The notes beneath the pieces are model-generated. The model saw nothing but the letters and a program-made list of their open reading frames with translations. It was not told where the DNA came from and did no database searches. A program made the position numbers and the translations under genes. A stretch of 64,000 bases of DNA from the NCBI GenBank assembly GCA_027493955.1, contig JAOSJT010000001.1:3960586-4024585 (forward strand), written 5' to 3'. Numbering within the stretch: position 1 is the first letter of the stretch; each line of letters starts with the position of its first letter. Origin of the DNA: Bacteroidia bacterium. GTDB lineage: Bacteria > Bacteroidota > Ignavibacteria > SZUA-365. Positions 7,833 to 41,150 of this stretch are shown here, in pieces.

Positions 7833-8151
7833 AGGGCAGTGCTTCGCTCCGTTCCTGTAAACTACGGCACGCCGATTTGCGGGGCAACGCGTGTCGGGTG
7901 CTCCCTGATGCATGCATGCCGGACAGAGTGTGAGACGGGCAGCGACTCTGTTCGTAGCAGGAGAACCCACATTCGACCAGGCTTCAGAAGTTCCATTGCT
8001 CTCGAGCCGGCGCGCCTCCCCGTAGCTCCTGTTGTCTGATAACGGACATTCCGCGCACGTTTTTCAAGACGGTACAATCCCTTTCGCCGAATTTCCTGTG
8101 GGCATTCCGATTTTCCTTGTCTCTGATTCAAGAGATTCCGATCTTACAAAG

Positions 8152-8170
8152 AATGTGCGTACTGCACATT
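8152..8170. promoter_or_regulatory. inverted repeat AATGTGC-N5-GCACATT upstream of argF (candidate operator)
   Basis: Seen in the 400-bp non-coding leader of the argF-arcC-pyrB-rocD cluster. Confidence 0.25.
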
Positions 8171-8431
8171 GTTTGAAACAGGAAGTGTGTGCATGATGCA
8201 TTGCGGCGTACATACGAACAGGGCGACGGCGGCGGTCTTACGCAGACTGCGCAAGCCCTCGCATTCATGCACGACGCGCTCCAGGAAGATCCTGCAATTC
8301 AAACACTACTGCACCGACGCCCCTATTTGACCCCAGCTCCTCCCCGCCGTAACGGCTTTCGCTCCGTCCCACGACAATCACGACCTTGTACCACATATTT
8401 CGGGCACGCTGTGCCCTTCAGGAGTATCACT

Positions 8432-9352
8432 GTGAAAGCGACCGACTTCCTCTCCGTCCGCGACATGAATCAGGAGGAGATCCTGGCCACCTTCGACATC
8501 GCCCTCGATATGAAAGCCGACCGCACGAAATATGCCGAAGCCCTCAAGGGTCAGGCGCTGGCGATGATTTTCGAGAAGCCCTCCCTTCGCACCCGCACGA
8601 CCTTCGATATTGGCATTCAGCAGCTCGGCGGATATTCACTCTACCTCTCACCGGCTGAAATCAGCCTCGGAAAACGCGAATCCGTGTACGATGTCGCGAA
8701 AAATCTCGAGCGCATGGTGCAGGGTATCATGATTCGCACCTTCGCGCATCAGATCGTCATTGATATGGCGAAGTTCGCTTCCATCCCCATTATCAACGGA
8801 CTCACCGACTTCTCGCACCCCTGCCAGGCGATGGCGGACTACCTCACCGTCAAGGAAGTGAAGGGCGAGCTGAAAGGCCTCAAGCTGTGCTATGTGGGCG
8901 ACGGCAACAACGTGGCGCACAGTCTCATGTTCGCCGGCGCTATCCTCGGTGTGGACGTCACTGTGGCCTGCCCCGCTGGTTACGAGCCCAACCTCATCGC
9001 CTTCCAGCAAGCCACGGAAGATGCCAAACTTTCGGGCGCGAAAATCGAAGTAGTACACGATCCGGCCGCCGGTGTGAAGAATGCCGATGTTGTGTACACC
9101 GACGTCTGGGCCTCGATGGGGCAGGAAGCCGAAGCCGCCGAGCGCCGCCGCATCTTCATGCCCTTCCAGGTGAACGAAGATCTCATGGCCAAGGCGAAGA
9201 CCGACGCCATCTTCATGCATTGTCTGCCTGCACATCGCGGAGACGAAGTGACAGACGGCGTGATCGACGCTCCGAATTCGGTGGTCTTCCAGGAGGCGGA
9301 AAATCGCCTTCATGCGCAAAAGGCCATCATGTATCAGTTGATGAAAAAGTAA
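8432..9352 (+). CDS. argF: ornithine carbamoyltransferase
   Basis: STRTR (SLRTRTTF), HPCQ and HCLPAHRGDEVT motifs are diagnostic of OTCase. ORF 8189..9352, but the conserved N-terminus starts at an in-frame GTG at 8432, preceded by AGGAG 8 nt upstream. ATG 8468 is an alternative start. Confidence 0.85.
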   Translation: MKATDFLSVRDMNQEEILATFDIALDMKADRTKYAEALKGQALAMIFEKPSLRTRTTFDIGIQQLGGYSLYLSPAEISLGKRESVYDVAKNLERMVQGIMIRTFAHQIVIDMAKFASIPIINGLTDFSHPCQAMADYLTVKEVKGELKGLKLCYVGDGNNVAHSLMFAGAILGVDVTVACPAGYEPNLIAFQQATEDAKLSGAKIEVVHDPAAGVKNADVVYTDVWASMGQEAEAAERRRIFMPFQVNEDLMAKAKTDAIFMHCLPAHRGDEVTDGVIDAPNSVVFQEAENRLHAQKAIMYQLMKK

Positions 9353-9361
9353 GGGCCGGCC

Positions 9362-10303
9362 ATGTCCCGTACAGCGCTCATTGCCATCGGCGGGAACTCG
9401 CTCATCCGCGCGGGTGAGCGCGGCACCATTGACGAGCAGCTCGCCAACGCGCACGCCACGGCGCGTTGTCTTGCCGAAATGGTGCAGCGCGGCTGGCGCA
9501 TCGTTATAACGCACGGCAACGGTCCCCAGGTGGGGGCCGCCCTGCTGCGTTCCGAACGCGCCGCCGGTGAAGTCTACACCCATCCCCTTGACGTCTGCGT
9601 CGCCACCACGCAAAGCGAAATCGGCTACCTGCTCCAGCGCGCGCTGGAGTACGAGCTTCGGCAGCTGGGCCTCACCACACCGGTGCTGACCGTGCTGACG
9701 CAGGTGCGCGTAGACGAACACGATCCCGCTTTCGCCCATCCCACCAAGCCTATCGGACCCTTCTATTCGAAGAAGGAAGCCGAGGACCGGCAGCGGCGTC
9801 TCGGCTGGAATATCGTCGAGGATTCGGCCCGCGGCTATCGCCGCGTCGTGCCCTCGCCCGAACCGAAAGAGGTGTTCGAACAGCACATCATCCGTAAACT
9901 GCTCGACGACGGCATGATTGTCATCGCCTGCGGTGGTGGCGGTATTCCCGTCATCGAGCGGGCGAATCACGAAGTGATCGGCTCCGAGGCCGTGATAGAC
10001 AAGGATCGCGCATCGGCCCTGCTCGCCTCGGAACTGGGTGTGGACCTCTTCATCATCAGCACTGATGCGCGGCAGGTGTTTGTGGACTTCAAGAAACCCA
10101 CGCAGCGGGGTCTCGACACAGCCAACGTATCCGAACTGCGGCAGCTCGCCGGCGAGGGGCAGTTCCCGGCCGGGAGCATGGGACCGAAAGTGGAGTCCGC
10201 CATCCGCTTCATCGAAAGCGGGGGCCGTGAAGTCATCATCACGTCATTTGAATATCTCACCAGCGCGCTCGACGGCAACGACGGCACGCGCATTGTTCCA
10301 TAA
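9362..10303 (+). CDS. arcC: carbamate kinase
   Basis: 313 aa. The IAIGGN N-terminus and overall amino-acid-kinase fold signature match carbamate kinase. Confidence 0.85.
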   Translation: MSRTALIAIGGNSLIRAGERGTIDEQLANAHATARCLAEMVQRGWRIVITHGNGPQVGAALLRSERAAGEVYTHPLDVCVATTQSEIGYLLQRALEYELRQLGLTTPVLTVLTQVRVDEHDPAFAHPTKPIGPFYSKKEAEDRQRRLGWNIVEDSARGYRRVVPSPEPKEVFEQHIIRKLLDDGMIVIACGGGGIPVIERANHEVIGSEAVIDKDRASALLASELGVDLFIISTDARQVFVDFKKPTQRGLDTANVSELRQLAGEGQFPAGSMGPKVESAIRFIESGGREVIITSFEYLTSALDGNDGTRIVP

Positions 10304-10324
10304 CCGGCACAGGAAGGACAGAGC

Positions 10325-11242
10325 ATGAAACTCCGCCATCTCGTCGAATCTCAGCAGTTCACCGTGCCTCTGCTGATGGAGTTGTTCGACCGTACGCGCA
10401 TGATGGAAAAGGTGCTGGCCCGCGGCGGCACCCGCGATTACGCACAGTACATCATGGGGACGCTGTTCTATAAGCCGAGCACGCGTACGCGTTTCTCCTT
10501 CGAAGCCGCCATGCACCGTCTCGGCGGCCGTGTGCTCTCCACCGAGCACGCAATGGAGTTCTCCTCCGAAATCGAAGGAGAAAAAATCGAGGATACCATC
10601 CGAATCATCGGCAATTATTGCGATGTTATCGTGTTGCGCCACCATGAGGAGGGAGGCGCCACACGCGCGGCAAGCGTGTCCACGATTCCCGTCATCAATG
10701 CCGGAGACGGTGCGGGCGGGCAGCACCCCACACAGGCGTTGCTCGATCTCTACACCATTTACAACGAATGCAAAACACTGGACGGTCTGTCCGTCGCGCT
10801 CATCGGTGCCCTCGATCACGGGCGCACCGCCCGCTCGCTCGCGTATCTGCTCGGGAAGTTTGACCGTACGAAGCTGTATTTCATCGCTCCCGAGGAAATG
10901 CAGATCGGCCGGGACATCCTCGACTATCTCGACAAGCACGACGTCGCGTATGAATTGGCCTCCACCACGAAGGGCATACTGAAAAGCATGGATGTCGTTT
11001 ATCAGACACGCATCGACAAAGACCGTCTGCGCAAGCGCGATATCGATTTGTCGCATTACAACATCGACAGTACGGTTCTGCGCGAATTGAAAAAGGACGC
11101 CATCATCATGCATCCCCTGCCGCGCTCGGTGGAAATTGACCATGCGGTGGACGACGATCCGCGCGCGGCGTATTTCCGCCAGACGCGCAACGGTCTCACC
11201 GTTCGCATGGCGCTGCTCACCATGCTTCTCGAACAAGAATAA
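10325..11242 (+). CDS. pyrB: aspartate carbamoyltransferase catalytic subunit
   Basis: 305 aa with STRTRFSFE, HPTQ and HPLPR motifs. These are the ATCase set, not the OTCase set (which has HCLP). Confidence 0.8.
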   Translation: MKLRHLVESQQFTVPLLMELFDRTRMMEKVLARGGTRDYAQYIMGTLFYKPSTRTRFSFEAAMHRLGGRVLSTEHAMEFSSEIEGEKIEDTIRIIGNYCDVIVLRHHEEGGATRAASVSTIPVINAGDGAGGQHPTQALLDLYTIYNECKTLDGLSVALIGALDHGRTARSLAYLLGKFDRTKLYFIAPEEMQIGRDILDYLDKHDVAYELASTTKGILKSMDVVYQTRIDKDRLRKRDIDLSHYNIDSTVLRELKKDAIIMHPLPRSVEIDHAVDDDPRAAYFRQTRNGLTVRMALLTMLLEQE

Positions 11243-11268
11243 ACCGATACGACAACACAGGTAGCACT

Positions 11269-12465
11269 ATGAACACACAGGATTATATCGCTCTCGAAGA
11301 ACAATACGGCGCTCACAACTATCATCCCCTGGACGTTGTCGTCGCACAAGCCGAAGGCGCCTGGGTCACCGACGTCGAAGGTAAGCGCTTTCTCGACTGT
11401 CTGGCCGCCTATTCCGCGGTGAATCAGGGTCATTGCCACCCGCGCATCATGGAGGCCTTCGTGGATCAAGCGAGGCGCGTCACGCTCACAAGCCGCGCTT
11501 TTCGCAACGACCAGTTGCCCATGCTGTATAAGAAGCTGCATGAGATGACCGGTTACGACATGTCCCTGCCGATGAACTCCGGCGCCGAAGCTGTGGAAAC
11601 AGCCATCAAGACCGCGCGTCGCTGGGCCTATGACGTCAAGGGCCTTCCGGAGAACAAGGCGGAGATCATCGTTGCCTCCGGCAATTTTCACGGCCGCACG
11701 ACCACCATCGTCGGTTTCTCCGATGATCCGTCGTCGTTCAAGGGCTTCGGACCGTATTGCACCGAAGCCTTCCCGATGCACGAATACGGCAATCTCGACG
11801 ATCTGAAATCGAAGATCACGCCGAACACTGCGGCCATCATGGTCGAACCGATTCAGGGCGAAGGCGGCATCGTGATTCCGCCCGATGGCTACCTGAAAGG
11901 TATCGAGCAAATCTGCCGCGAAAACAACCTCCTGTTCATCTGCGATGAAATTCAGGCGGGTCTCGGTCGCAGCGGTAAGCTCTTCGCGCATTACTACGAA
12001 GGTGTTCGGCCAGACATTGTGATTATCGGCAAGGCGCTTTCCGGTGGCTTTTACCCCGTATCCGCCATTCTGGCCGACAAGCATATTCTGGGTGTGATCA
12101 AGCCGGGCGAGCATGGTTCAACCTTCGGAGGTAATCCTCTTGCCGCCGCCGTCGCCGTGCGTGCTCTCGAAGTTATCGAGGAGGAAAAACTCATCGAGCG
12201 TTCCGCCGAACTCGGCGAATATTTCGCCGGAAAACTCCGCTCCATGGATTCTCCGCATATCGTGAAGGTCCGCGCGCGTGGATTGTGGATCGGCCTCGTA
12301 CTGGATACGAAGGCACGACCGTACTGCGAAGCACTCATGCGCGAGGGCATTCTCTGCAAGGAGACGCATGTGAACATCATCCGTTTCGCTCCTCCCCTCG
12401 TCATCACGAAGGATGAGATAGACTGGGCGCTCGAGCGCATCGAAAACGTACTCAAGACCGTGTAA
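11269..12465 (+). CDS. rocD: ornithine aminotransferase (ornithine--oxo-acid transaminase)
   Basis: 398 aa class-III PLP aminotransferase. Strongly OAT-like throughout (AHNYHPL, FICDEIQAGLGRSGK, GEHGSTFGGNPLA). Confidence 0.85.
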   Translation: MNTQDYIALEEQYGAHNYHPLDVVVAQAEGAWVTDVEGKRFLDCLAAYSAVNQGHCHPRIMEAFVDQARRVTLTSRAFRNDQLPMLYKKLHEMTGYDMSLPMNSGAEAVETAIKTARRWAYDVKGLPENKAEIIVASGNFHGRTTTIVGFSDDPSSFKGFGPYCTEAFPMHEYGNLDDLKSKITPNTAAIMVEPIQGEGGIVIPPDGYLKGIEQICRENNLLFICDEIQAGLGRSGKLFAHYYEGVRPDIVIIGKALSGGFYPVSAILADKHILGVIKPGEHGSTFGGNPLAAAVAVRALEVIEEEKLIERSAELGEYFAGKLRSMDSPHIVKVRARGLWIGLVLDTKARPYCEALMREGILCKETHVNIIRFAPPLVITKDEIDWALERIENVLKTV

Positions 12466-19657: not shown

Positions 19658-19775
19658 GCGCCTGAGCGAGTTTAGGCGGTCCCTGAGCGAGTTTCAGCGG
19701 TCCCTGAGCGAGTTTCAGCGGTCCCTGAGCGCAGTCGAGGGGCAGCCTCCGAGTGAAGGGCGGTTTCTGAGCGTG
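19658..19775. repeat. about 3.5 tandem copies of a 21-bp unit (GTCCCTGAGCGAGTTTCAGCG) plus a related GAAGGGCGGTTTCTGAGCGTG copy
   Basis: Read directly from the sequence. It belongs to a dispersed GGTCCCTGAGCG motif family also present at 26453-26511 and 28874-28918. Confidence 0.8.
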
Positions 19776-20000
19776 TTTCCGGTGCCCGATCGTAGCCGAA
19801 GGCCCGGAGTACGCCAATCTCTCGACAACGGATGCTACGCGCAGCGGATCGTATAGACCAGAGTTAGATATATGACTATGTAATAAACGAAATTTTTCAA
19901 AAAAATCCCATATCTATGGGAGGCGCAGCATGTTTGAATGGAGGTATGTTTCCGTTGTGATCATACATGAACGATGTTTCACGAGTAAAAGGACACTACA

Positions 20001-21512
20001 ATGAACGACAAAACAACAATCCCGAAACGGCTGCGGGCGCTACTGCCGCATAAGCGCTTCCATTGCCTGCGGACCATGCTCGCATTGCTCCTGCTGCTCT
20101 GCGCCACGAAGGCGTACCCGCAGGTGCAATGGACGGAAGTGAAATTGCCAAAATCCCCGAATATGACTTCATTTTCTAGTATGGTGTGGGCAGACTCGCT
20201 CCATGGATATCTCTTCGGGCGTTTCCACGGCGTAATACTAAAAACCTCCGATGGCGGTGCCAGATGGTTGCTTGATTTCCTACCACCAGGACCGGATTCA
20301 CTTATCTATCGTTCCGGGTTCGAATTCAGACACGCCGATTTCAAAGGCAGGGATTTCGGCGTTGTGACATTCAACAAATATGGCGGGCGGGATTCGTTGC
20401 TCTTCTATACAACGGACGGTGGCGCTACCTGGAGTTACCATCTGATCAAGATGAATTCTCCGTTTGAAAACACAATGAATCCTCCCGGTTCTCAATTGCG
20501 TGTTGACGCAAACCGTGCCCTGTTCCTGTATTACACGCGCCAATACGACGACGGTGTGATAGCCAATGTGATAACTCGCAGCGATGACTACGGCGCGACG
20601 TGGCGTGAACTCGGAGGCGACACCGTATCCGGAAGCGGCGACCTCATTAACTATTACGTCATGCTGGACTCGCTGACGCATTACCGCTTCACTACTTTGT
20701 GGGACATCGGTGACTTCAGTCGCTCCGAGGCGCGGGTCACAACCGATGGCAGGCGCAACTGGTCCGGTTTCCCCGAGTTGCATTATCTGTGGTTTATTGA
20801 TAATTCGGAAATTCAGGAAGTCCGGATGATCAATGATACCTCGGTATCGATTAGGCTTAGGGATCCCAACGGAAATGGCGGCCCATGCATTGTCAGCCGG
20901 GATATCCGCAATCACCTCACGCGTGAGGCATGGTATAACTATGGGCATCCGTATACATGGCCGAACGGGTGGAAGCAACCGGTATACGATTTGCTGTATC
21001 ACGACGGTACGTACATCGCCAGAATAACGGATTCCGTCATGGTCTTCCGGGAAAATCCACCGGAGCGCGCACAAAAATTGTACGTACCCGGAGGATATTA
21101 CGGCTCGTTTTACCTGCAACCGGGCGGTCGCGTGTGGCATTTGAATTGGGGAAAGCTCTGGGTCCTGGACTACCGGACCTTGGGCTCTGCTGTTACTCTC
21201 CCCGCGCCATCGCACGACATCGAGGGCTTCGAGTGCTATCCACAACCGTTTTCAAGCAGCTTGGGCGTGCTTACACTGCGCTTGAACAGCAAGCAGCGCC
21301 ATGCAGAGGTTGAACTCGCTGTATACGATTCGAATGGTAGGCGGTTGTATGATAGAGAAATCGGAGACATCGCGCCTGGCATGAGTGATGTGCATGTGGA
21401 TATGTCAGCAGCATCGTTCTCACAGTTACCCTCTAACGCGGTGCTGTTTATCGAATTACGAACTCAAAATCAACGCTTCTACACGAAATCACTGTTTCTC
21501 AAGAACAAGTAG
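20001..21512 (+). CDS. T9SS-secreted protein with BNR / Ycf48-like repeats
   Basis: Signal peptide (probable start ATG 20076, MLALLLLLCATKAYPQ). Repeats of the form S/TxDGGxxW (TSDGGARW, TTDGGATW, SDDYGATW). C-terminal Por sorting domain (ECYPQPFSSSLGVLTLRL...VYDSNGRRLY...). Confidence 0.7.
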   Translation: MNDKTTIPKRLRALLPHKRFHCLRTMLALLLLLCATKAYPQVQWTEVKLPKSPNMTSFSSMVWADSLHGYLFGRFHGVILKTSDGGARWLLDFLPPGPDSLIYRSGFEFRHADFKGRDFGVVTFNKYGGRDSLLFYTTDGGATWSYHLIKMNSPFENTMNPPGSQLRVDANRALFLYYTRQYDDGVIANVITRSDDYGATWRELGGDTVSGSGDLINYYVMLDSLTHYRFTTLWDIGDFSRSEARVTTDGRRNWSGFPELHYLWFIDNSEIQEVRMINDTSVSIRLRDPNGNGGPCIVSRDIRNHLTREAWYNYGHPYTWPNGWKQPVYDLLYHDGTYIARITDSVMVFRENPPERAQKLYVPGGYYGSFYLQPGGRVWHLNWGKLWVLDYRTLGSAVTLPAPSHDIEGFECYPQPFSSSLGVLTLRLNSKQRHAEVELAVYDSNGRRLYDREIGDIAPGMSDVHVDMSAASFSQLPSNAVLFIELRTQNQRFYTKSLFLKNK

Positions 21513-21524
21513 GAAAGGTGTGAC

Positions 21525-24500
21525 ATGAAGAATACGAAGTACCTGTTCACGGCATGTCTCTTCGTCATGATGACTGGAAACGCAATCGCACAGACCCCTG
21601 AGTTAAACGATTACTGGCAGAATTTCGTCTCAAGCGGGGCGAATATTCTCTCAGGCTACACTCCCGATCCTAATTCAGTAAATCTCGGCAGTAATATCGC
21701 AGGGTACCACTTGGGCCGCTTTGGCTTGCATGGTCTCATCTGGGGGCACCTGACCTGGGTGCGCTCGCCGGAGTATGCTGATCCGGCGACAACGGATGGG
21801 CTGCGCAGGTAGTATCTGCGAATTGCTAATGGTAAGATCGATACGATGACGAGCGCTCCGGTCTTCGAGGATATCAGTGGCTGCGGCGCTATCAGCTACA
21901 AAGGACCGACGCATGAGGCGATCACGAGATATCATGACGGGTTCTGGCATGATGGCGACATGATCGGTGGCGGGTATAAGGGCTGGGGCATGAAACGAAG
22001 CATGGATGCCATGGTGGCTCTACCCAGATATATGCCCCGCATACTCAAGGACGAGTGGTATCGCATGAAAATCCGCTGCGAAAACAGTCCGCCGCCGAGT
22101 ATGTTCACAACAATCACCATCTGGCTGGCTCCTGGCGGCTCGCCCTTCCCGAGTACGCCGCATTATATGCAGACGTATCGGGGGCTGGAAAAGGGAACAG
22201 AAGAGAATGCTCCGATATTACCTGTCACAGACGACGGATCGCTGCACATTGACCCTGTCAGCGGACTGCTGCAACCGCAGCGCGTATGGTACAGGAAAGG
22301 TACTGTGGCGATACTGTCCTGCTTTTCCAACATATCCGTGAAGAATCTGGCCGTGTTCAGAGGTACGGGCGGCAGCAGAACGCCGTTCTACAGTTTGCAG
22401 GTGCATGGTGCGGATTACACTGCCGATATCAACGATTTCTATGAACACTGGATTCGTGTCGGCGATGAAGATGTAAACGGCAGCGACCGCGACGTGTGGT
22501 CTGTGACTCTTGACAATGGTGAATACGTGATTCATACCACGGCAGCCAATGGGTATCCGATCGCTATGCCGGGTGCGCTGTATCGGCAGGATAACGAAGG
22601 CGTGTATGCTTCGGCATATCTGAAGTACAAGGACGAAGTTGACTTTACGAGCTTCAATCTGGAGGATTGTGAAATCGAATACGATTTGCGCATCGGCAAG
22701 CGCAACACCGGTTATGCTTAATCGGGCATGGCGTTTCATTTCACGAATCGAACAGGAGATCTCCATACCTACATCGACGGCAGAGAGCCAGACCTCGGCG
22801 TTGAGGGTGGTGTATTTGAAACCCCGGATGAAGTGACGGAAGGCGATGAATCCGTGGCCCTTCATAGCAGTGCCCAGTCCCTTGTGCGTTTTGGTCATTA
22901 CTACCGGCATTTGTACCGCTATCTCGCCGCAAATCTGCGTCCCGACAGAATGGAGGTGACACACCATCGCGAGAGCAAGGAGAAAAAAAATGATGCGGGG
23001 CAATTCGTAGAAAACAGCGGAGAGCTGTTCTATGGCGGCACTCCGTGGGATGCGTCCTTCAGCATTGATCCCGACTCACTCGCCTACTCCGAAGGGCATA
23101 ACTACGAAGGAGAAATGGCGGGAGCGATATTGCGCTTCAGCCGCTATATACTGGATCCGACTACACCGGCGGAGCTGAGTACGCATTTCGCCACGAATGC
23201 GAGCACCTACATCACGGCCATGAACGACAATTTGCTGGCGAAATGGATCAATGCCGCGCAACTGTATACCGGCAGCAGTGACCTGTTTTATGGCGCCAGT
23301 CAGAGCAACTGCTTGCTCGGCATCGGCAATCTCAACGACGGTCATATTTGGCGATACACGAAATCCCGTACAGGGAGTATGTTCCTGCATGCTCGCGGCT
23401 TATCCGGCATCACTCCAGCGTACTCTAATTTCTCCGATGCGTATTGCGATTACTATCACACGAAAATTGCCGATGCCTTCGTTCCCCAACAATACGATGG
23501 CAGAGACACCTGGCAATGGTATGACGGCGCCGGGTGGTGGGAAACGTATGACAACGGGATTATGGATGCAGCTCACTATGCGGGCGAGGTACGGCATGTG
23601 TTCATGGCGGACGAGTATGGCTTCCCCGAAATGGGCGACATCGGGTCGAAGATAGCAGACAATTTCGTGAATGCTATGTGGAACAGAGTTCTCCCCAATC
23701 CTCCGGAGAACCTGGTTGATCTGTACGAGTTCCGCCATCCCAATGAAAAGCACAAACTTTCTGACAAAGGAAACAGTTACGGACTCACGGACTACCCGTT
23801 GCTCGCAAAATACAATTTTACGGTGTGGGAAATTCTTAATGATTTCTACGCCCGTAAACCTATGCACCTGCGGAATTACGCACCAGCCTCCGCACAGATG
23901 GCCTATGCCGTGCGCTACGGTACGCCGCGCAATCTTCGCGCCGAGCCGCTCACCGTGTAGTCCTGCAATGATGGCCTCGTCTCGAACCTGCTTATCCGCT
24001 GGGATCCACCGTCGGATTATCCCTGTGGCTATCTTGATGGTCCATCGGGCGGCATCCGCCATGCGGGCACGCGCCTGCGCTGGTATCACATCGATCGCAA
24101 ACTCGCAAGCGATGCGGACTGGTCCGCCGCCGTGCGCTGGAGCATAGACATACCCACATTCCAGCAAGCCCACAAGTATCCCTTCCTGCTTGATCCCACT
24201 GCCGAGGTGGGGCAGAGTTATCAGTATCGTGTATGTACGCAAGACGCCTCAACGGGCATCACGAATCTTTCGGAATACTCCCCAACCCTCGACGTCACCT
24301 ATCCCGCCTATGCCGGTTACTATGACAGCAGAAATGACTTGCTCGAAATCGACCTCTTCCCCTGGCCGACGATACTGAGCGGCGAAACGCGCACGCTCGC
24401 CAAAGGCATTTACTATGCGCCGTTCAACATCCTGGTGGAAGAGGGCGGCACGCTCGTGCTCGATCCCGCCGTGCAGATCATTTTCGGCGATTTGTGCGAG

Positions 24501-26285
24501 CTGGAAGTGAAGGGCTCGTTCGTCGTCAACGGCAATCCGGACTGCGAGAGGGTAACGCTCACCGGTGTGGCCCCTCAATCGGGAGGCGGCGCCTCGGGCA
24601 GTTGGTGGGGTGTGTCGCTCTTTCCCTCCGCGACGCATGACATCGATTACGCCATCATCGAGAACGGAATCAACAATCTGGTGCTCTTCGATCCGGGCGG
24701 CGTTGTGAGCAACACCGCATTGCGCTACGCCTCACAACATGGCGTCATCATCAAAAACGCCGACGATTCCGGTCCCGCCGCACAATTGCTCGAGCAATGC
24801 GACATTCACGAAAACGGCTGGACCAATGTGTTTATGACACACGGAAGTCTCGATGCGGGAGGCCAACCGATACCGATCTACCCCATCATCCGCAACTCCA
24901 CCATCCGCCAGGCGCTCACCGGCGATGGTATACTTGTGGCCGATCAGGCATTTCCTCTCATTGAATACTGCGACATACACTCGAACGCGACGAATGGCAT
25001 TCGCTGCGAGCAAGTGCGCGGAGACGTTTTCGCCAACTCGAACGTCACTCTGTTGCACAGCAACATACACGATCACGAAAGCGGAGCGGGCGTATTCCTC
25101 CGAGGCAGCAATGGCCTGTTGCGCTTCAACGAGCTGTATGGAAATCTGCATGGCGTGTCGGCCAACGATGCGTCCATACTTCATGGTGCGCTGTCCTACG
25201 GCTCTGTCGGCGGTAATTCGCTGCATGACAATGATATTCACCTGCGAATAGAGAATTGTACCGGTATCTACATTGGGTTCCACTTCAGTTTGCTCGGCGA
25301 CAGTCGTGGCCACGGCAATACCTTTGTCGCGCCGGGCAGTTACCACATACAATCGGTAAATTCGGCGGGCTTCGCGCAGTGCAACAGTTACAATCCGTAC
25401 GACCCCTACGCCAATCCACCGCATTTCGACATCCCCGGTTTCCCGATGACGCCGGACATTGAAGTGTTGCCGCTCGGACCATGCGTCCCTCCCGGAGGTG
25501 GTACGCAAACGATATTGCCTAAAACCGTTGCATCCAACGAGCGTGCATTCACGCTCGGCACTTTGCCGATGTTGTTCGAAAAACACGACGATGCCTCGGT
25601 TCTGAAACTCCTGCAGACGTACGAGCTCGATCCGATATGCCGGCATGGCATACTCAGTTGGCTGGGCACCTACGCCGCGAGCGGCTCGCACAAGGATCGC
25701 TACCTCGCCATACTCGACTCACTGTCGCAATCCTGGCAGGGCGGCATGTTGGCGCAGGTACGCCATGCCGGAGTATCCGCCTTCGTCTCGCGCGGCGGCA
25801 TGCAGATGTCGCCGGGTTACGCTTCCTCAATATCCGACTCGGCATTGCACTCCTACATCACACTGAAAGCCGCAGTGACAAATTCGAAGGAGCTTTCTCC
25901 GATGGAGGTTCTCCAGGCGCAGATCCGGAACAACGATACCGTCAACAAAACGATGTCGCCGCTAACACCCGCAGCGGGAAACGGCGTCCCGGTCCCCAGA
26001 ATTTCCGTCAATGCCGGGCCGCCTCAGCCGGAGTATTCCGGACTGCTCGCATACCCCAATCCGGCGAGCGGTATGCTCAATCTCCGGGTGACAGATGCTC
26101 GTCGTTATGAGCAATGCAGGGTCACAGACTTGCTCGGACGAGTCGTCATGAAGGTAGATTTGCGTACGGTTACGGTTGAGGAAGGTTTGTACCGACTCGA
26201 CCTCTCCACGCTCCCCCGCAACCGCTATCTCGTCACGTTGTTCGGCGAAGATGGCACGGCGTGTAAAACGGTGGTGTTGCGCTGA
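21525..26285 (+). pseudogene. composite T9SS-secreted parallel beta-helix protein (about 1587 codons) interrupted by three in-frame stops: TAG 21810-21812, TAA 22719-22721, TAG 23958-23960
   Basis: ORFs 21525..21812, 21846..22721, 22728..23960 and 24132..26285 share one frame, and the gaps translate without further stops (the 23961-24131 gap reads ...SNLLIRWDPPSDYP...RWSID..., Fn3-like). Only the first piece has a signal peptide (MKNTKYLFTACLFVMMTGNAIAQ). Only the last has a T9SS CTD (AYPNPASGMLNLRV...). The middle contains pectate-lyase-like beta-helix repeats. Confidence 0.5.
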
Positions 26286-26343
26286 GGTCTTGCGCAAGGC
26301 ATTCCGATTCGAAGTTAATAGCTGGCCTTTCGGTCATAACAGC

Positions 26344-26384
26344 AAAACAGGAGAGCGTCCGGCTCTCCTGTTTTGCGTTTTGCG
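26344..26384 (+). terminator. rho-independent terminator after the composite cargo gene
   Basis: CAGGAGAGC-GTCCG-GCTCTCCTG followed by TTTTGCGTTTTGCG. Confidence 0.65.
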
Positions 26385-26452
26385 AAATTAGAGTTGAATT
26401 CCTGTAAAGTTCTGACGCTTTGTTTGCATGAAAATAAGCACGTGAATTATAA

Positions 26453-26511
26453 CGATGGTCCCTGAGCGAGGTCTCGGCTGCGCTCGACCATCGTCGAAGG
26501 GACGCTCAGCT
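26453..26511. repeat. REP-like imperfect hairpin carrying the GGTCCCTGAGCG motif
   Basis: CGATGGTC-CCTGAGCG...CGCTC-GACCATCG inverted repeat, followed by the GAAGGGACGCTCAG reverse copy of the motif. Confidence 0.6.
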
Positions 26512-26543
26512 ACTGACGAATGGCAATCACAGTCGGAGGGGAA

Positions 26544-27749
26544 CTATCGGACGACTGTGAACGGGTAGGTGGAGAGTGTGTTGTTGATACTGATGCACGC
26601 GATGTAATACCCGACCGGGAAGGTCGACACGAGAACACTACGCGTCAGAACAGCATCGTAATACTGAAGTTCCTCCGCATGAAATATTCGTCCGGTCAGA
26701 TCTCTGATAGATAATTGGATGTGCGCGGGCTTTGTATACGTAATCTCGACATTGACGAAGTCTTTTGGCGAGCTTGGGTAGACCGATAGCGATTGAAGTT
26801 GCTTTGGGTTCTCAACCAGGTTCGGTGTACAGCACGGAGAATTAATCTTGTTGTATCTGTTGTTGCCGGTAAATTCGTTCGGACAATAGAGCTTCCTGAG
26901 CGCACAGATATTGCGACAAGAAAGTTTGGTGGCTTGCGGGATATTTGCCTTCAGAATGTTTCTATACATTGGGTCGCTTTTCGAGTCTGGATACGTTGTG
27001 CTATTCTCACAAGGATTCCCAATTGCGTCGGGATTATCGTTTGGGTCACTTGTTTCGCCCACGCCATATCCATTAATGTGGCCGAGCCCTAAGCAGTGAA
27101 GGATTTCATGCAGCAGGACTGATTTGATCGAAACGCACGGTTTACCTCATATTGAGGGATTGTTGCATTCCGGTTGCCAGCACCACTCATTATTTCGCTT
27201 TCGATCTTGTGACAAATTCAACCACACGGAGGGGACGTCAGTAGAGGGATTTCTCCCCTCCATTTGTCCCGGAACCTCTCTCCCATCAATACCAGGCTTA
27301 TCAAAAGCTTGGGCAAATGTGGTGCCAAAAATTTCAATCGGCTCCGCTCCGTTCAGATTTTCGCAACTTTTTGAAATCGTGAGTCCTCCTGTTGTCGGGC
27401 ACACGCAATCATGAAGTTCATTTGTAATATCCTGCAGCGCCGAATTCACAGTCGCCTTGAAGTCGAAATTTAAACAAGTGATTCCTTTAATGGTTTCAGG
27501 GAGAAACTGCCACTCTCTGACACAAATGTTTCTGGCGACATGTTGGTAGGGTAGCACAAGCGGACCGGCGACAGGGGTTGTGCGGCCACACCAGAAAACA
27601 TTATCAGAATACTCAAGGTCTTCTACCTTCTCTTTCCCTCGGACGTAGTATGAATGAATCCAGGTTGGATCGCAGCCCGTTTGCGCGTACGTAACACTGA
27701 CGGGAGTAACGAGCAGAATGACGAGAATGATGATTCGTTTTGTAGTCAT
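26544..27749 (-). pseudogene. T9SS-secreted metzincin-type zinc metalloprotease interrupted by one in-frame TGA (27147-27149, minus strand)
   Basis: ORFs 27147..27782 (signal peptide MTTKRIIILVILLVTPVSVTYAQ) and 26544..27062 (T9SS CTD) are in the same frame. The 84-nt gap translates without stops as GKPCVSIKSVLLHEILHCLGLGHINGYG, which contains the HExxHxxGxxH metzincin zinc site. Confidence 0.5.
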
Positions 27750-27759
27750 GGCTGTAATC

Positions 27760-28698
27760 CTATTGGAGTCTGAGCATACCATTTCGCAACGTGCTGATGC
27801 AGTCCTCCAGATTTATCTGCGCACCACTGCGGAGAAGGAGATCGTTATCGAAGACCACATTTCCTACCACTGGCAATGCTCCCCTGACTCTTAAGTGATA
27901 GGAGGTATAGCTTGTTTGCGTACTCACGACGAATAAATCGAGAAAAACAATATATTGCTTCCCGACCTCCATCTTGCCTGGACCGGATTCGTAATACGTA
28001 AAACCCTTCGGGGCATAGTATCTGAATATACTGTCCGGCGGGCAGACCCAAGAAACGGGGATGCAGTTGCCGCTGCCTTCACCGATCGGATTTCCACAGA
28101 AATCGCTGTTCTGCAATCCACCAAAAATAGAAGTGATTATGGATATATCAGCGCAGTAGATTTCATTGAGATGCGGCGAACCAAAATATCTGGTCGTTGA
28201 GTCAATATGAACGCTTCTCGATTCAACGTTCACAAGATACACACCGCCGATATTGAAGTCTCTGAGCGTATCATAAAGATTTCTGGGAGATACGCGGTCG
28301 TAAAATGCATTTTGCAGGCTGCCGCCCAGATCCATATACGTCGATTTGTAGGCTGCGGGTTGTCGCCAATTTGACTCGTTTTCAGTGTGACGGAAGCGCA
28401 AATAATCGTAGTCCAGAGCTCGCAGCAGGGCTCTCATGCCGAGCGCGATGGAATCTTCACTGAGACTGTTGGCGAAGCTGTACAGCTCCTCCGGTGAATA
28501 AAGCTTACAGAGCGTATCCGCAACGATATACGTCGCGACAATGTCGAGCGGCATTTGGATCGAGTAACTTGGCCAGTTCGTAATTACCGCCGCATTCAGT
28601 ATCTCGCAGGTGCTGTCGCTTTTCATAAACAGCGGCTGGGAGTGCGAAGCTTGGGATATGCCGGCGGCAAGCAACACGAGTAAAACAGTGATACGCAT
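27760..28698 (-). CDS. secreted hypothetical protein
   Basis: ORF 27760..28743 with signal peptide from MRITVLLVLLAAGISQA. No recognisable domain. Confidence 0.45.
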   Translation of the reverse strand: MRITVLLVLLAAGISQASHSQPLFMKSDSTCEILNAAVITNWPSYSIQMPLDIVATYIVADTLCKLYSPEELYSFANSLSEDSIALGMRALLRALDYDYLRFRHTENESNWRQPAAYKSTYMDLGGSLQNAFYDRVSPRNLYDTLRDFNIGGVYLVNVESRSVHIDSTTRYFGSPHLNEIYCADISIITSIFGGLQNSDFCGNPIGEGSGNCIPVSWVCPPDSIFRYYAPKGFTYYESGPGKMEVGKQYIVFLDLFVVSTQTSYTSYHLRVRGALPVVGNVVFDNDLLLRSGAQINLEDCISTLRNGMLRLQ

Positions 28699-28873
28699 AT
28701 GATTATCCTTATAAAAGTACGGTGCAAAATACTCGCAGGGCATACAAAAGTCAAGCCAACTACCATATTGGGGTCGCAGGCAGGTCGGAATGGTTGCATG
28801 TGGGCTGTGTGAGTAGAAATGGGATCAGTATCAACCGCAAACGAGAATGCAATGAACGCCAAGAAAGCATGGT

Positions 28874-28918
28874 CGAAGGGCGGTCCCTGAGCGTGGCTTC
28901 GACGGTCCCCGAGTCAGG
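28874..28918. repeat. third copy of the GAAGGGCGGTCCCTGAGCGTG dispersed motif, partly duplicated (GACGGTCCCCGAGTCAGG)
   Basis: Matches the 19755-19775 copy at 19 of 21 positions. Confidence 0.7.
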
Positions 28919-29004
28919 TGACCATTCCGCCGGGCGGAAGTCGGTGACTATCGAATGTGACATCGAATTGGGATGAAAAATCTATCAAATATAGTCACTC
29001 TGTG

Positions 29005-29068
29005 CTTCGGCCGAGGCCCACCCCCATCATGTAGAGACGTTGCATGCAACGTCTCTACATGGCCGAAG
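29005..29068. promoter_or_regulatory. perfect 28-bp palindrome (GTAGAGACGTTGCATGCAACGTCTCTAC) nested in an outer CTTCGGCC/GGCCGAAG inverted repeat, about 165 bp upstream of a cargo gene start
   Basis: Read directly from the sequence. Candidate operator or 5' UTR hairpin. Confidence 0.6.
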
Positions 29069-29230
29069 GGGCCGTGCATTCCCTTTGCTGAAGAGACAAC
29101 AAAAGCTATCGGCATGCATAATAACCTTGATTCCTGGTCGGATGCTGTGTACTTTGCCGTTTCGCTGGTCGTCGCCGGGCAAATAGTCATTCGTCATCCC
29201 GCATTCGTGCCACAAACCGAGGATATCGAC

Positions 29231-30883
29231 ATGAACTTTCGTAGTACCTTGTTGCTTCTCCTTCTCGTCCTCGTTTCATCCGGTCTGATCGCGCAACCTT
29301 CACTGCCCAAGACCCCGAAGGAAGATATGTCCGGCCGCATTTCTCCTGGCAATCTCACCATGTGGTTTTCCAACAACGGCATCCTGTCCTTCGATCCGAT
29401 GCGTGTTGCTGCGGGACTGGAGTGGCCAACAGGTTCGGGGAAGTTCCTGGCCTTTTCCGAGGGATTACTCTTCGGTTGCCGGAATCCGGAGCCGTCGGTG
29501 GGCGGAGCCAATTACATTTCCGGCTTGCAACCTGGCAACATCCTCGCAGACGGACAGGCAAGCGATCCCGCCGATCCGGCGCACCGCATCTACATGGTTC
29601 GCAGAATGGACCGGACGTCCTTCGAAAACCTGAGTAGAGTCGAACAGTCGCGGTACATTTTGGACTTTCAGGAATGGCCGGTGCATCTGGGCGCTCCGTG
29701 GATTGACGGAAACAGAGACGGCATGTACGAAGCGGATTTTGACGCCTGGCTCGAAGGCACACCCGGCCAGGATTGCCCGAAATTTCCGGGAACGGAAGCG
29801 GCGTGGTTCGTCATGAACGATCTCGACAGCGCGCGCACGACGAAGCTGCACGGCTCCGATCCCGTGGGCGTCGAAATCCGCATGCTGATCTGGGGTTCGG
29901 ATGAAGCCGGCGTCCCGGCAAATACACTCGTGCGCGACATCAAAATCATCAACCGGAGCGGGGCCACGCTGAATGACGTCTACCTGTCCTGGTGGGTGGA
30001 TCCAGAAGTCGGCGACCCCTTGGACGATTTCGTCGGAGTCGACACCATCCGCAATATGGCCTACGCGTACAACAGCAGGGATCACGACAACGAATACGGC
30101 GTTGCACCGGCTATCGGCTGGAGATTGCTGCAGGGTCCGGTAGTCCGCGATCCAAACTCGGTGGCGCTGTATGATTACGGCTGGAAGCAAGGCTACCGCA
30201 ATCTGCCGCTGAGCAGCTTCGTGCATTATATAAACACCGACGCGGTGTACCGCGACCCGGAACTGAGCGATGAAAGCGGCGCTACACAGTGCTACAACAA
30301 CATGCAGGGGCTGACGTGGAACGGCGCGCCGTTCGTCAATCCTGTGAGTAACAAAACGAGCGTATTTACCCTCAATGGCAATCCCCTGACGGGCAGCGGC
30401 TGGGTGGACGGCATCGTGAATCCACCCGACGACAGGCGCATGATGATGAGCACCGGTCCGATATCTCTCGCCGACGGGGAAGAGCAGCAAATCATTATCG
30501 GATCGGTGGCCGCGCTGGACACCTCCGCGAAAGCGAGTGTCTATAAATTACTCGTCAACAGTGATGAATTCCTGAATTTTTTACTGCGCCATGTGACGTC
30601 GGCGTCGGCACCGGCAGCGATCCCACACTTTGCCATTTCGGACGTGTTTCCCCAGCCCGCAGCGGACAGGATAACAGTGCGCTTCGATGTGGACAGTCCG
30701 CAGCACATCACGCTTGACGTGTACGACATGCTGGGCCGGCGACTGCGGCGCCATCTCGATCTGTCCACTGCCGCAGGCAGCCACAGCAGCACAATCACAA
30801 CGAGCGGCTGGGCTCCGGGCATGTATATACTCCGAATGCAAGGTGCACAGGGGAGTGTGAGCAGGCGCTTTGTCGTACGATAA
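29231..30883 (+). CDS. T9SS-secreted hypothetical protein
   Basis: ORF 28973..30883. Signal peptide from ATG 29231 (MNFRSTLLLLLLVLVSSGLIAQ). C-terminal Por sorting domain (ISDVFPQPAADRITVRFDV...GMYILRMQG...). Confidence 0.65.
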   Translation: MNFRSTLLLLLLVLVSSGLIAQPSLPKTPKEDMSGRISPGNLTMWFSNNGILSFDPMRVAAGLEWPTGSGKFLAFSEGLLFGCRNPEPSVGGANYISGLQPGNILADGQASDPADPAHRIYMVRRMDRTSFENLSRVEQSRYILDFQEWPVHLGAPWIDGNRDGMYEADFDAWLEGTPGQDCPKFPGTEAAWFVMNDLDSARTTKLHGSDPVGVEIRMLIWGSDEAGVPANTLVRDIKIINRSGATLNDVYLSWWVDPEVGDPLDDFVGVDTIRNMAYAYNSRDHDNEYGVAPAIGWRLLQGPVVRDPNSVALYDYGWKQGYRNLPLSSFVHYINTDAVYRDPELSDESGATQCYNNMQGLTWNGAPFVNPVSNKTSVFTLNGNPLTGSGWVDGIVNPPDDRRMMMSTGPISLADGEEQQIIIGSVAALDTSAKASVYKLLVNSDEFLNFLLRHVTSASAPAAIPHFAISDVFPQPAADRITVRFDVDSPQHITLDVYDMLGRRLRRHLDLSTAAGSHSSTITTSGWAPGMYILRMQGAQGSVSRRFVVR

Positions 30884-37589: not shown

Positions 37590-37886
37590 ATGAGGAGCGA
37601 TCTTGATGCTGTTGAAGAATCGGAAGATCTCAAGTTCGAGGTTTTCCCGAATCCTGCCCGGAAGGAAATCACGTCTCGATTCGTTCTTGCGGCACCCGCT
37701 TTAGCGCGTCTGTCGCTGTACGATATCTCAGGACACTTCATTCAAGACCTGTACCGTTCAGGCACTCTCGATGCCGGTACGCACCAGGTAACATGTACCC
37801 TCGAAAACATGCAAGTAGGTTATTATCACGTCGTGCTGCGCGTGAACAAAAACGTCGTGCGGAAATTGATCCATATAGTACTCTGA
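37590..37886 (+). pseudogene. orphan T9SS C-terminal sorting domain (98 aa) with no upstream cargo and no signal peptide
   Basis: ...KFEVFPNPARKEITSRFVLAAP...LSLYDISGHFIQDLY...GYYHVVLRVNK is a complete Por CTD. Nothing protein-like lies upstream in any frame. Confidence 0.4.
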
Positions 37887-37900
37887 TCGTGGGGCGCATC

Positions 37901-40159
37901 ATGACGAACACCAGATATATAACAATCACTTCTGCCCTGCTTCTGCTCATGCTAACAACGGACGCGGCGGCACAATGGAAACAGCTTCCCATCCCCGCAG
38001 TTCATGGCAAGATTGCCTGCGCATCGGACGGGTCGCTCCGGGTACTGACCAACGGCACACTCTGTTACAGCGATGCGGGCAGGAAGTCTTGGACCTACCA
38101 ATCCTTCCCGTACGATCTGCGTGATCGTACCTTCTACCCGCTGCGGCAAATGCTTCTTGCTTCCGACGACACAATGCTGATCATCTCCATGAGTGGAGAT
38201 GTGTATTCCGTCGTACGGGGAGAGGAGACCCTACGTCCGGCTTCTGAGGGATTGCGGTCGAAGAATCCTCGTGGTCCCTTTCTCTTGACCTCTCGGGGCA
38301 AGCGCGGCGAACTCCTGCTCTGTCATGAGCAATTCTACGCATCCACAAACAACGGCGCAAGCTGGGAACTGCGGTACAGCGATCCAGGATCAGGCAGTTT
38401 TGGTCCCGGCGCGGTGGATCCGTGGAATACGGATGTGATGCTCCTGCTCAATGCGAATATCATTCACAGATCCACCGATGCGGGCGCGACGTGGCGGATG
38501 ATCCCTATGGAGCTGTCCTCCTACGGAGCGGCCGACATGATTGTCTGCCCCGACGGACAGATTCACGCGGGGCGCTACCACTCATCGAATTGCGGCGAGA
38601 CGTGGAGAACGTACCCTATGGAGGGAGGTATCGACGATTATTGGGGCGATGACAACCTCAAGTATGTATACAACAGTCAGGAACATAGCGTGTACGCATT
38701 AAACCGGCTTTACGGATTGTTCTGCCGGGATCTCGACAATCCGACTTTCCAGATCACCACATTGTCCTCATCCTACGACAGATGGATACGGTCGTTCCGT
38801 CTTAGTGCTGATGTCTCGTACGATGCACGATCGGGCAAAATGTTCGCCATCGTCAATGATTCACTGTACGAATATCTGCGGGGGGAGGTCGCGTTACTGA
38901 GCAACACCGTTTCGGCAGCGCCGGTCAACGGTTTGCTCGCGTACAATGCGGAAGGGGATACGCTTTTGGTCTCAACACCGCATACCACTCTGAAGAGTAC
39001 CGATGCAGGCCGGACATGGGAATCAACCTCAATACGGGGGGTAGGTCATTTCAAGATGGAAATGATGCATTCCAAGAGAAGCAAAGATATGATCTACCAG
39101 TTCAACAGGGAGAATCAAATTATCTGGGTAATAGAGAACGAGAAGTCGTTAGAGAAATGGATCAGACTTGTCGGACCTTGCAAGCCCACCTACGATCCGT
39201 TCAGCAAGGATACCTTCCACGGTGGAAGCAACGGACTCTGGAGATTGAACGATTCCGAGGTGCTGAGCGCGGATTCCACCGCTGTTCTCATGGGCGAGTT
39301 ATATGCGGGCACGCCCGTGCTTGCTCAATGCCTGTCCTTCGACAAGCATAGGGAAGGTGCTATACTACTCGCCGGCCTCGATCGGGACGATGGGAGAACC
39401 TCGCAGCTCCACCGCACCGGTAACTACGGTTTTAGTTGGGCGCGGATTACCTCCATCGCCCTGAATGAGACGCCGATTGACATCATTTTCGATGATGCTG
39501 TTGAAAACAGGATTCTCGTGATCGAGCCGACGGGAGTGCATATCACCACCGACGACGGCGTGACCTGGCAATATCGAGACCCCGGTCTTGGAAGCAGAAA
39601 GATCACATCCGTAGCTATCGATCCGGACAATGCATCGACAATGTTTCTCGGCGTCACCTCTCCGTCGAGACTCGACCCCATCCCGCAGTCGCGCGAAGAT
39701 GGCGGAGGCGTGTGGCAAAGCACGGATAGTGGTATGACGTGGGGCAAGCTCCCCATCAACGGCTTGCACAACTATAATATTTCGCATGTCCTCGCGCTTC
39801 GCAATCCCCGCCGCATTTTAGTCGGCACTCCCTGCGGCGCATATGAATATCTTCTTGATTCGACCACCTCCGTCACACCGCAGAGCGCTGCGCCTACCGG
39901 CGGGGTGGAATTCGAGATATACCCAAATCCAGGTCGTGGAGTTGTGAACATCAGGTACACGATTAGCGCCCCCTCGGCTGTGCGGGTTGCGGTGTACGAC
40001 GTTCTCGGAAGGGTGGTGAGCGTTCAATCCGTGGATGCGGCATCGGGCGGCAGTCACACCTTGACCCTGGCTACCGCGGCTCTGCGTGATGGTGTGTACA
40101 TCGTGACGCTTGAGACACAAAGCGGAATTGCCGCACGCAGAATGCTGCTTGCGCGATGA
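37901..40159 (+). CDS. T9SS-secreted BNR / Ycf48-like repeat protein
   Basis: ORF 37793..40159. Signal peptide from ATG 37901 (MTNTRYITITSALLLLMLTTDAAAQ). Repeats STNNGASWE, STDAGATW, STDAGRTWE, TTDDGVTWQ and STDSGMTWG. C-terminal Por CTD (EFEIYPNPGRGVVNIRY...). Confidence 0.7.
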   Translation: MTNTRYITITSALLLLMLTTDAAAQWKQLPIPAVHGKIACASDGSLRVLTNGTLCYSDAGRKSWTYQSFPYDLRDRTFYPLRQMLLASDDTMLIISMSGDVYSVVRGEETLRPASEGLRSKNPRGPFLLTSRGKRGELLLCHEQFYASTNNGASWELRYSDPGSGSFGPGAVDPWNTDVMLLLNANIIHRSTDAGATWRMIPMELSSYGAADMIVCPDGQIHAGRYHSSNCGETWRTYPMEGGIDDYWGDDNLKYVYNSQEHSVYALNRLYGLFCRDLDNPTFQITTLSSSYDRWIRSFRLSADVSYDARSGKMFAIVNDSLYEYLRGEVALLSNTVSAAPVNGLLAYNAEGDTLLVSTPHTTLKSTDAGRTWESTSIRGVGHFKMEMMHSKRSKDMIYQFNRENQIIWVIENEKSLEKWIRLVGPCKPTYDPFSKDTFHGGSNGLWRLNDSEVLSADSTAVLMGELYAGTPVLAQCLSFDKHREGAILLAGLDRDDGRTSQLHRTGNYGFSWARITSIALNETPIDIIFDDAVENRILVIEPTGVHITTDDGVTWQYRDPGLGSRKITSVAIDPDNASTMFLGVTSPSRLDPIPQSREDGGGVWQSTDSGMTWGKLPINGLHNYNISHVLALRNPRRILVGTPCGAYEYLLDSTTSVTPQSAAPTGGVEFEIYPNPGRGVVNIRYTISAPSAVRVAVYDVLGRVVSVQSVDAASGGSHTLTLATAALRDGVYIVTLETQSGIAARRMLLAR

Positions 40160-40619: not shown

Positions 40620-41150
40620 ATGCACCTGCTGAACGTGCATCACGCGGCCTTCGTGCGCTATGTGCGGGCGATGACGAAGGACAGCGAGCTGGCGCGGGAT
40701 GTCGTGGGCGAGACGCTGCTGGCGGCATACGAGAGCTTTCACAACCTGCGCGACCCGGCATCGTTTCTGTTTTTTCTCATCGCCATCGCGCGGCGGCAGT
40801 ACTGGAAAATGAGCCGCTGGGGCAGGCTGTTTACGCGCATGGAAACGAAGCACGAGGATCTGGTGATAGATGGCGTAGCGGAGCCGGGAGTCGCCCACGA
40901 TGTCGAACTCCTCCATGCAGCCCTCGCGAAGCTGCCGCAAAAGCAGCGGGAAGCCCTGGTTCTCTTCGAACTGTCCGGATTGAGCCTGAATGAAGTTCAC
41001 GCACTGCAGGGCGGATCGCTTTCAGGCGTCAAATCCCGGATCGCACGGGCAAGGAAAAAACTCGCGGAAATGCTCGGGGAAAGACAGACCGAGCCCCGTA
41101 CATCCGAGGATGCCAAGATCGTCATAGCTGATACAAAGGTCGGACAATGA
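40620..41150 (+). CDS. ECF-subfamily RNA polymerase sigma-70 factor
   Basis: ORF 40563..41150. Sigma-70 region 2 (ETLLAAYESFHNL) and region 4 (REALVLFELSGLSLNEV). Overlaps the next gene by ATGA. Confidence 0.8.
   Translation: MHLLNVHHAAFVRYVRAMTKDSELARDVVGETLLAAYESFHNLRDPASFLFFLIAIARRQYWKMSRWGRLFTRMETKHEDLVIDGVAEPGVAHDVELLHAALAKLPQKQREALVLFELSGLSLNEVHALQGGSLSGVKSRIARARKKLAEMLGERQTEPRTSEDAKIVIADTKVGQ

Follow-up and report, generated by a model that had tools for sequence, protein, structure and literature searches.

The window analysed here is a stretch of 64,000 nucleotides from a Bacteroidia bacterium (NCBI assembly GCA_027493955.1, contig JAOSJT010000001.1), and the element in question is a large gene on its forward strand, at positions 21525–26285, which would have encoded a cargo protein of the type IX secretion system (T9SS). 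When read in a single frame, the gene contains 1587 codons, and the only internal stops are codons 96, 399 and 812. The listed open reading frames (ORFs), i.e., ORF1 (21525–21812), ORF2 (21846–22721), ORF3 (22728–23960) and ORF4 (24132–26285), share this frame and leave gaps of 33, 6 and 171 nt. The gaps contain no additional stop and translate cleanly, as had been stated in the original prediction, which was made from the sequence alone; also in agreement with it, the number of frameshifts in the window copy of the gene was zero. In the deposited NCBI record the pieces appear as four separate proteins, MCZ7557753-56 (locus tags M5R41_15250-15265). A literature search with the sequencing-run accessions and the locus-tag prefix produced no match.

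The three stops divide the gene into four pieces. Piece 1 (21525–21809, codons 1–95) begins with a Sec signal peptide at 21525–21590, with a cleavage site between AIA and Q, and aligns with the N-termini of the homologous proteins P0001, P0002 and P0026. It is followed by stop 1, a TAG at 21810–21812 (codon 96). Piece 2 (21813–22718, codons 97–398) had no Pfam match and is conserved among homologues. After stop 2, a TAA at 22719–22721 (codon 399), piece 3 (22722–23957, codons 400–811) represents a domain of unknown function, which is predicted to be mostly helical. Stop 3, a TAG at 23958–23960 (codon 812), is located at the N-terminal edge of a fibronectin type III (FN3)-like domain. Piece 4 (23961–26282, codons 813–1586) contains this FN3-like domain, a beta-helix, a helical linker and the T9SS sorting domain, and is terminated by the true stop, a TGA at 26283–26285, which is the same in the related copies L005, L006 and L007. 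An intrinsic-terminator-like hairpin follows at 26342–26385, between two convergent genes; its 15-bp stem is preceded by an A-tract and followed by a U-tract. Folding of approximately 26342–26376 gave a free energy of −31.6 kcal/mol (z = −6.2 versus shuffled sequences) with a U-rich tail, and the good terminator of the original prediction was thus found again. The hairpin was absent from the output of a consensus promoter and terminator scan, which performed no better than on shuffled sequence.

The sorting domain (approximately 26052–26273) was recognized by Pfam Por_Secre_tail (PF18962) in piece 4 only, with 30.1 bits versus a cut-off of 27, at residues 698–771 of the piece; the NCBIfam sorting-domain model TIGR04183 reached 21.8 bits, slightly under its cut-off of 23. 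Por_Secre_tail was also matched by the homologues P0002 and P0026. The right-handed beta-helix (approximately 24888–25370) corresponds to Pfam Beta_helix (PF13229), which likewise matched piece 4 only (42.5 bits, gathering cut-off 25.9, residues 310–470 of the piece). Pieces 1–3 gave nothing in Pfam, and for the N-terminal region of about 800 aa no family was obtained in Pfam, NCBIfam or a PDB profile search; an AlphaFold model of piece 3, with a predicted local distance difference test score (pLDDT) of 34, was too poor for use. The 171-nt gap had been considered to encode an FN3 strand. No Pfam match was obtained for this region at E ≤ 5. The AlphaFold model of 23961–24440 is a beta-sandwich of moderate confidence (mean pLDDT 55, core 60–90), and its top Foldseek matches in the PDB were FN3 domains exclusively (E 9e-4, template modelling score up to 0.69). 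The FN3 assignment is therefore retained as a resemblance in fold, for a putative beta-sandwich at approximately 23991–24299. The strand LIRWDPPSDYPCGYLD, encoded in the gap past stop 3, is nearly identical in P0001 and P0026. Since the annotated start of ORF4 (GTG at 24132) falls within the FN3-like domain, ORF4 would be no natural protein.

A Sec-type leader, MKNTKYLFTACLFVMMTGNAIA followed by QTPE after the cleavage site, was present at the start of ORF1 only, while ORF2, ORF3 and ORF4 have hydrophilic or acidic N-termini and no signal peptide (both judged by eye). The earlier statements that only the first ORF has a signal peptide, that only the last possesses the C-terminal sorting domain and that the inner pieces, having no leaders, could not be exported by themselves were thus borne out, by eye for the leader and by Pfam for the sorting domain. 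In the homologues and in the reconstructed ancestor, signal peptide and sorting domain are on one polypeptide; in this strain three stops lie between them. Core T9SS genes were not identified in the 64-kb window. Indirect support for T9SS machinery in the host comes from three clear Por_Secre_tail genes in the window, together with a weak match in a fourth gene (gene B, see below).

Homologues were sought with the conceptual product of 1586 aa among 5.8 billion proteins, and two were found, P0001 (1385 aa, 39% identity) and P0002 (1548 aa, 32%). An exhaustive HMMER scan with piece 3 added P0026 (1553 aa), P0024 (1226 aa, partial) and P0025 (573 aa); among 1.84 billion cluster representatives, five clusters matched piece 3. 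Scans for further relatives yielded only the distant P0001 locus from genome contigs, and only one weak beta-helix fragment from metagenome contigs. The family is very rare. P0001, P0002 and P0026 align unbroken over all three junctions, and P0024, P0011 and P0006 span junctions 2 and/or 3. The arrangement of four ORFs in one frame is thus no product of chance. At the position of codon 399 all distant homologues have Glu (Asp in one), in the motif TGYAESG.

The annotation in the NCBI record would suggest four genuine proteins, perhaps a split gene working as subunits, and re-initiation would be possible at ATG codons which are located 6 nt (ORF3) and 33 nt (ORF2) past the preceding stop. This explanation is considered extremely unlikely. 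Export signals are missing from ORF2, ORF3 and ORF4, a conserved strand of the FN3-like domain would be left in an "intergenic" gap, and all homologues are single chains, with the split points present in no relative. Four independent genes with their own signal peptides, which were looked for in the relatives, did not occur there; the relatives have one gene.

For a closer comparison, the relatives L005, L006 and L007 (about 84% nucleotide identity) were retrieved from cluster members and their contigs, and a codon alignment was prepared. Codon 96 is CAG in L005 and L006 and CGG in L007; codon 399 is GAA (Glu) in all three; codon 812 is CGG in L005 and CAG in L006 and L007. Because sense codons are present at all three sites in the relatives, each stop is a simple substitution (C>T, G>T and C>T, respectively). 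Pairwise ratios of non-synonymous to synonymous substitution rates (dN/dS) between the window copy and the three relatives were 0.10–0.20 in each of the four pieces (0.15–0.17 in piece 2), and the indels among the four lineages were all multiples of 3 (3 to 36 nt) except for two +1 insertions, in L005 and L007. The dN/dS values and the in-frame indels together imply that the four pieces evolved as one translated frame during nearly their whole history. Judged from these alignments and from the contiguous homologues, the ancestral state is one gene, not four, which had been the central claim of the original prediction, together with three in-frame stops as the only interruptions.

The stops were recovered independently of the assembly. 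The same locus was present in Logan single-run assemblies of at least four short-read runs (SRR25626499, SRR25131601, SRR25580097, SRR25580095). The matching contigs, with matches 3–9 kb long, jointly cover all three stops; L001, L003 and L004 were identical to the window and L002 had one mismatch away from the stops. L001 was recorded in nine samples. The contig of the NCBI metagenome-assembled genome (MAG) which is on record for the four pieces is 5.24 Mb long. Since the same stops occur in independent assemblies, they are not an error of one assembly, and since the assemblies consistently gave the stop at each site, the stops must co-occur in the same genomes at least in pairs. The 90%-identity cluster members included no near-identical allele that was intact. 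The three stops thus appear to be fixed in the strain.

It had also been suggested that polymorphism of the population was captured in the assembly. In such a case the stops would be on different haplotypes, or would be sequencing errors, and no cell would carry all three. The source is indeed a MAG, and the sites, being 900–1240 nt apart, could not be phased by short reads. Such an origin is nevertheless very unlikely and is contradicted by the contigs just described: the single mismatch is off the stops, the stops would have to be the majority allele in every assembly, and the pieces are contained in the MAG contig, with no intact near-identical protein in the 90% clusters.

An alternative or reassigned genetic code was considered and excluded. 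The whole window was scanned for stops flanked by coding signal, and this was combined with the gene map and Pfam checks, which were added because the coding-potential scan recovered stops 2 and 3 and, because of short or weak flanks, missed stop 1 and the TGA of gene B. In-frame stops were confined to 2 of about 45 genes of the window, with all three codon types involved. The second of these is gene B (26544–27749, reverse strand), which is convergent to the large gene and consists of 401 codons, with an HExxHxxGxxH zinc-protease motif; it is also taken as a T9SS cargo gene, with a weak Por_Secre_tail match (E = 0.0027, 18.4 bits versus a cut-off of 27). It contains an in-frame TGA at 27147–27149, which is also covered by L001 and L002, the two longest contigs. 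The codon is GGA (Gly) in P0022, the intact 401-aa orthologue in L008 (97.8% identical); the other differences between the two amount to eight synonymous and five missense changes. Gene B was deposited as two hypothetical proteins. TAA, TAG and TGA each terminate Pfam-supported genes in the window (arginine-pathway genes, phosphoenolpyruvate carboxykinase, M48 peptidase, MazF-type toxin). Other adjacent ORFs in the same frame, e.g., carboxyltransferase and OAD-gamma at 1282–3315 and a MazF-type toxin followed by asparagine synthase at 43718–45868, are separate Pfam-supported genes ending in ordinary stops.

The large gene is preceded, at a distance of 12 nt, by a BNR/Asp-box (PSII_BNR-like) gene at 20001–21512 on the forward strand (503 aa with signal peptide; PF14870, 27.3 bits), which accompanies it in the relatives, in the same order in L006, L007 and L011, and is intact in all of them. 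The large gene was found broken independently in every other sampled lineage which carries it. In L006 (a Joint Genome Institute contig of 188 kb), codon 763 has changed from TAC to TAA; L007 combines CAG>TAA at codon 897 with one +1 insertion; a G run of L005 is longer by one base (G5>G6, a +1 insertion); and in L011 an internal deletion of approximately codons 198–1076, with a change of frame, fuses codon 197 or thereabouts to about codon 1077. Thus, among the four other copies, nonsense mutations occur in two, +1 frameshifts in two and an internal deletion in one. In L011, the BNR gene and the N-terminus of the large gene are also duplicated in tandem (3473–9168). An N-terminal paralogue fragment of 144 aa was observed upstream of the BNR gene of L006, at 3624–4058.

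Identity of the large gene to its relatives, determined in 150-nt windows, varied between 0.59 and 0.99, with different relatives being nearest in different parts of the gene; the N-terminal half is more variable and the beta-helix half much more conserved. This mosaic structure indicates frequent recombination between alleles. In L008, a closer relative which is 97.8% identical over 26457–28913, the whole region 19674–26456 is missing: homology ends at 19673 and resumes exactly at 26457. The 12-nt motif GGTCCCTGAGCG occurs in 5 copies versus 0.43 expected. Three tandem 21-nt units, each starting with GGTCCCTGAGCG, form the left edge of the BNR and large-gene cassette (19678–19740, forward strand), a single copy is at its right edge (26457–26468, forward strand) and a further copy is at 28882–28893. 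From its positions, the motif looks like a repetitive extragenic palindromic (REP)-like repeat which may mediate gain or loss of the 6.8-kb cassette. L008 also contains ISL3-family transposase and GIY-YIG genes (4934–6670), which are inserted between the homologues of 27760–28743 and 28973–30883 and are further evidence that this neighbourhood may be a rearrangement hotspot.

Taken together, the locus is likely a young pseudogene from one T9SS cargo gene, seemingly fixed in the strain, in a fast-turnover, recombining surface-protein cassette; recent nonsense pseudogenization, one of the explanations offered at the outset, is thus well supported. The ancestral protein would have been a T9SS cargo of about 1586 aa, with signal peptide, a domain of unknown function of about 800 aa, FN3-like domain, right-handed beta-helix, helical linker and sorting domain. 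It would have been inactivated by three substitutions, CAG>TAG at codon 96, GAA>TAA at codon 399 and CAG>TAG at codon 812. Translation with the standard code would end after codon 95 and would leave a secreted mature stub of about 73 aa, and the downstream ORFs would be gene fragments without export signals. The gene resides in the cassette of BNR gene and large gene between GGTCCCTGAGCG repeats, a cassette which some relatives have and others lack. The protein was perhaps dispensable or disadvantageous in the sampled habitats, e.g., because it was costly to produce or served as a target at the surface, and its loss would therefore be tolerated or selected. The additional stops upstream could be neutral follow-on hits, or they could have been favoured for shortening a useless product which cannot be sorted.

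The stops are very recent compared with the long purifying selection on the gene, as judged from the other changes in the window copy. Private changes, which were counted at codons identical in the other three lineages, were 64 synonymous and 16 non-synonymous, corresponding to a ratio of non-synonymous to synonymous polymorphism (pN/pS) of 0.07, with 0.05–0.08 in the other lineages. At 202 family-invariant codons the window copy has two conservative private changes (Y278F and F1250I), no more than its relatives. The lack of detectable relaxation would fit very recent lesions; it does not prove loss of function.

Several observations do not sit easily with a simple pseudogene. With the codon content of this gene, 3.0–3.7% of random substitutions create stops; under neutral decay, three nonsense hits would be expected alongside approximately 80–100 substitutions and probably some frameshifting indels. 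The window copy shows neither a sign of relaxed constraint nor a frameshift, and nonsense is mildly over-represented (p about 0.03–0.06, from rough Poisson estimates, which are suggestive). The frameshifts of both relatives, in addition, were found in unpolished Logan contigs and could be errors. The nonsense excess is not decisive; selection on the stops, or continued function by way of read-through, would be compatible with it.

Read-through, or suppression of the stops by a suppressor tRNA or leaky termination, would mean that the gene is still functional and that a full-length giant cargo protein is made, a possibility which the original prediction had listed. The absence of detectable decay and the small number of substitutions accompanying three nonsense hits would agree with this, as would the in-frame stops in L006, L007 and gene B. 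Still, the explanation is quite improbable. With TAG and TAA in the large gene and TGA next door, no single suppressor would suffice, and all three codons are the ordinary terminators of neighbouring genes. A suppressor tRNA was not found in the window, where a tRNA-Pro is the only tRNA. The stop positions vary by lineage: in the orthologues the three sites are sense codons, and the stops of these copies are found elsewhere (codons 763 and 897), which argues against a conserved recoding site. The base after each of the three in-frame stops is T, an efficient termination context in E. coli. The +1 frameshifts and the large deletion in the relatives would be beyond rescue by any suppression of stops. 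A somewhat broader alternative is that null alleles, mostly nonsense, recur and spread in a cassette under purifying selection and are repaired by recombination, in a population-level on/off system, or else that the stops are partly read through and a low level of full-length protein is formed; this is regarded as unlikely.

The young-pseudogene interpretation could be refined by assuming that the loss was positively selected and was not passive decay, for example because the protein was a target of phages or predators or imposed a cost, and because upstream stops shorten an unsortable periplasmic product. Independent lesions are present in the window copy and in each of the four other copies, the cassette is gone in a further relative, and the BNR gene and about 40 other genes of the window are intact. 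Nonsense is over-represented relative to other signs of decay, the mosaic, hypervariable structure of the gene is typical of exposed proteins, and a second T9SS cargo gene next door, gene B, was also hit. Selected loss is accordingly put forward as a tentative possibility, in view of the marginal statistics, the small sample of five lineages from possibly similar habitats, the lesions of two relatives which derive from unpolished contigs, and the fact that large genes are big mutational targets.

It had been recommended to check whether other large cargo genes in the genome show the same pattern. Within the window this was partly so: gene B has its one TGA, while three sorting-domain genes (28973–30883, 37793–40159 and 41147–42490) are intact. 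Also intact is a gene for 2008 aa at 49931–55957, with many HYDIN/ASH/DUF1573-type Ig-like repeats and a cohesin-like domain, which demonstrates that disruption is not shared by large surface-protein genes in other parts of the window. An arginine/ornithine cluster at 8189–12465 consists of two carbamoyltransferase paralogues, a carbamate/amino-acid kinase and an ornithine aminotransferase; three consecutive genes in it (8189–11242) are in the same frame and each end with TAA, which mimics the split-gene pattern, yet they are separate genes. The MazF/PemK-type toxin gene at 43718–44056 (PF02452, 95.6 bits) is followed in the same frame by the asparagine-synthase-like gene, and a short ORF at 43476–43724, which overlaps the toxin gene by 7 nt, may encode its antitoxin.

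As a practical consequence, MCZ7557753-56, being pieces of a single gene, should carry a pseudogene flag, and the same applies to the two fragments of gene B. The locus offers a clean case of a large T9SS cargo gene inactivated very recently by several hits, and from the pattern of lesions it would seem that an exposed protein has been lost repeatedly, perhaps under selection, in the communities sampled.

Among known systems, bacterial nonsense pseudogenes, which belong to the "disrupted gene" class of comparative pseudogene surveys, are a close counterpart. Shared properties are a full-length orthologue elsewhere, conversion of sense codons to stops, annotation of the fragments as short hypothetical proteins, and young, strain-specific lesions. 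Different are the three nonsense hits without frameshift or other detectable decay, and the independent breakage of each sampled sister lineage despite a long-term dN/dS of 0.1–0.2. With T9SS type A cargo proteins with a beta-helix passenger, the reconstructed product has in common a Sec leader ending before Gln, a passenger of FN3-like domain and beta-helix, a sorting domain of about 75 aa and the presence of further cargo genes nearby; it differs by its N-terminal region of about 800 aa without family match, the rarity of its family, and the fact that the window copy cannot be translated as one chain.

Recoding of UGA or UAG has been reported in some uncultured bacteria and phages, and large genes with in-frame stops in metagenome-derived sequence would resemble such cases. 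Here, however, all three stop codons occur in frame, in two genes only; the same codons terminate other genes, and relatives possess sense codons at these sites. Contingency (phase-variable) surface loci are similar in that the gene is repeatedly off in related populations, a G run has shifted in L005, and the locus is mosaic, with repeats on either side. In the window, by contrast, the gene was hit by substitutions, which are not readily reversible; the G5>G6 shift was present in L005 only, and neither a repeat tract nor an invertible element was found in or before the large gene. A phase-variable locus in the strict sense was therefore rejected. The feature is a nonsense-type bacterial pseudogene, a well-known kind, and points to no new mechanism or genetic code; it is modestly interesting for the independent lesions in all sampled lineages of a gene with such low dN/dS, and for the repeat-bounded cassette in which it resides.

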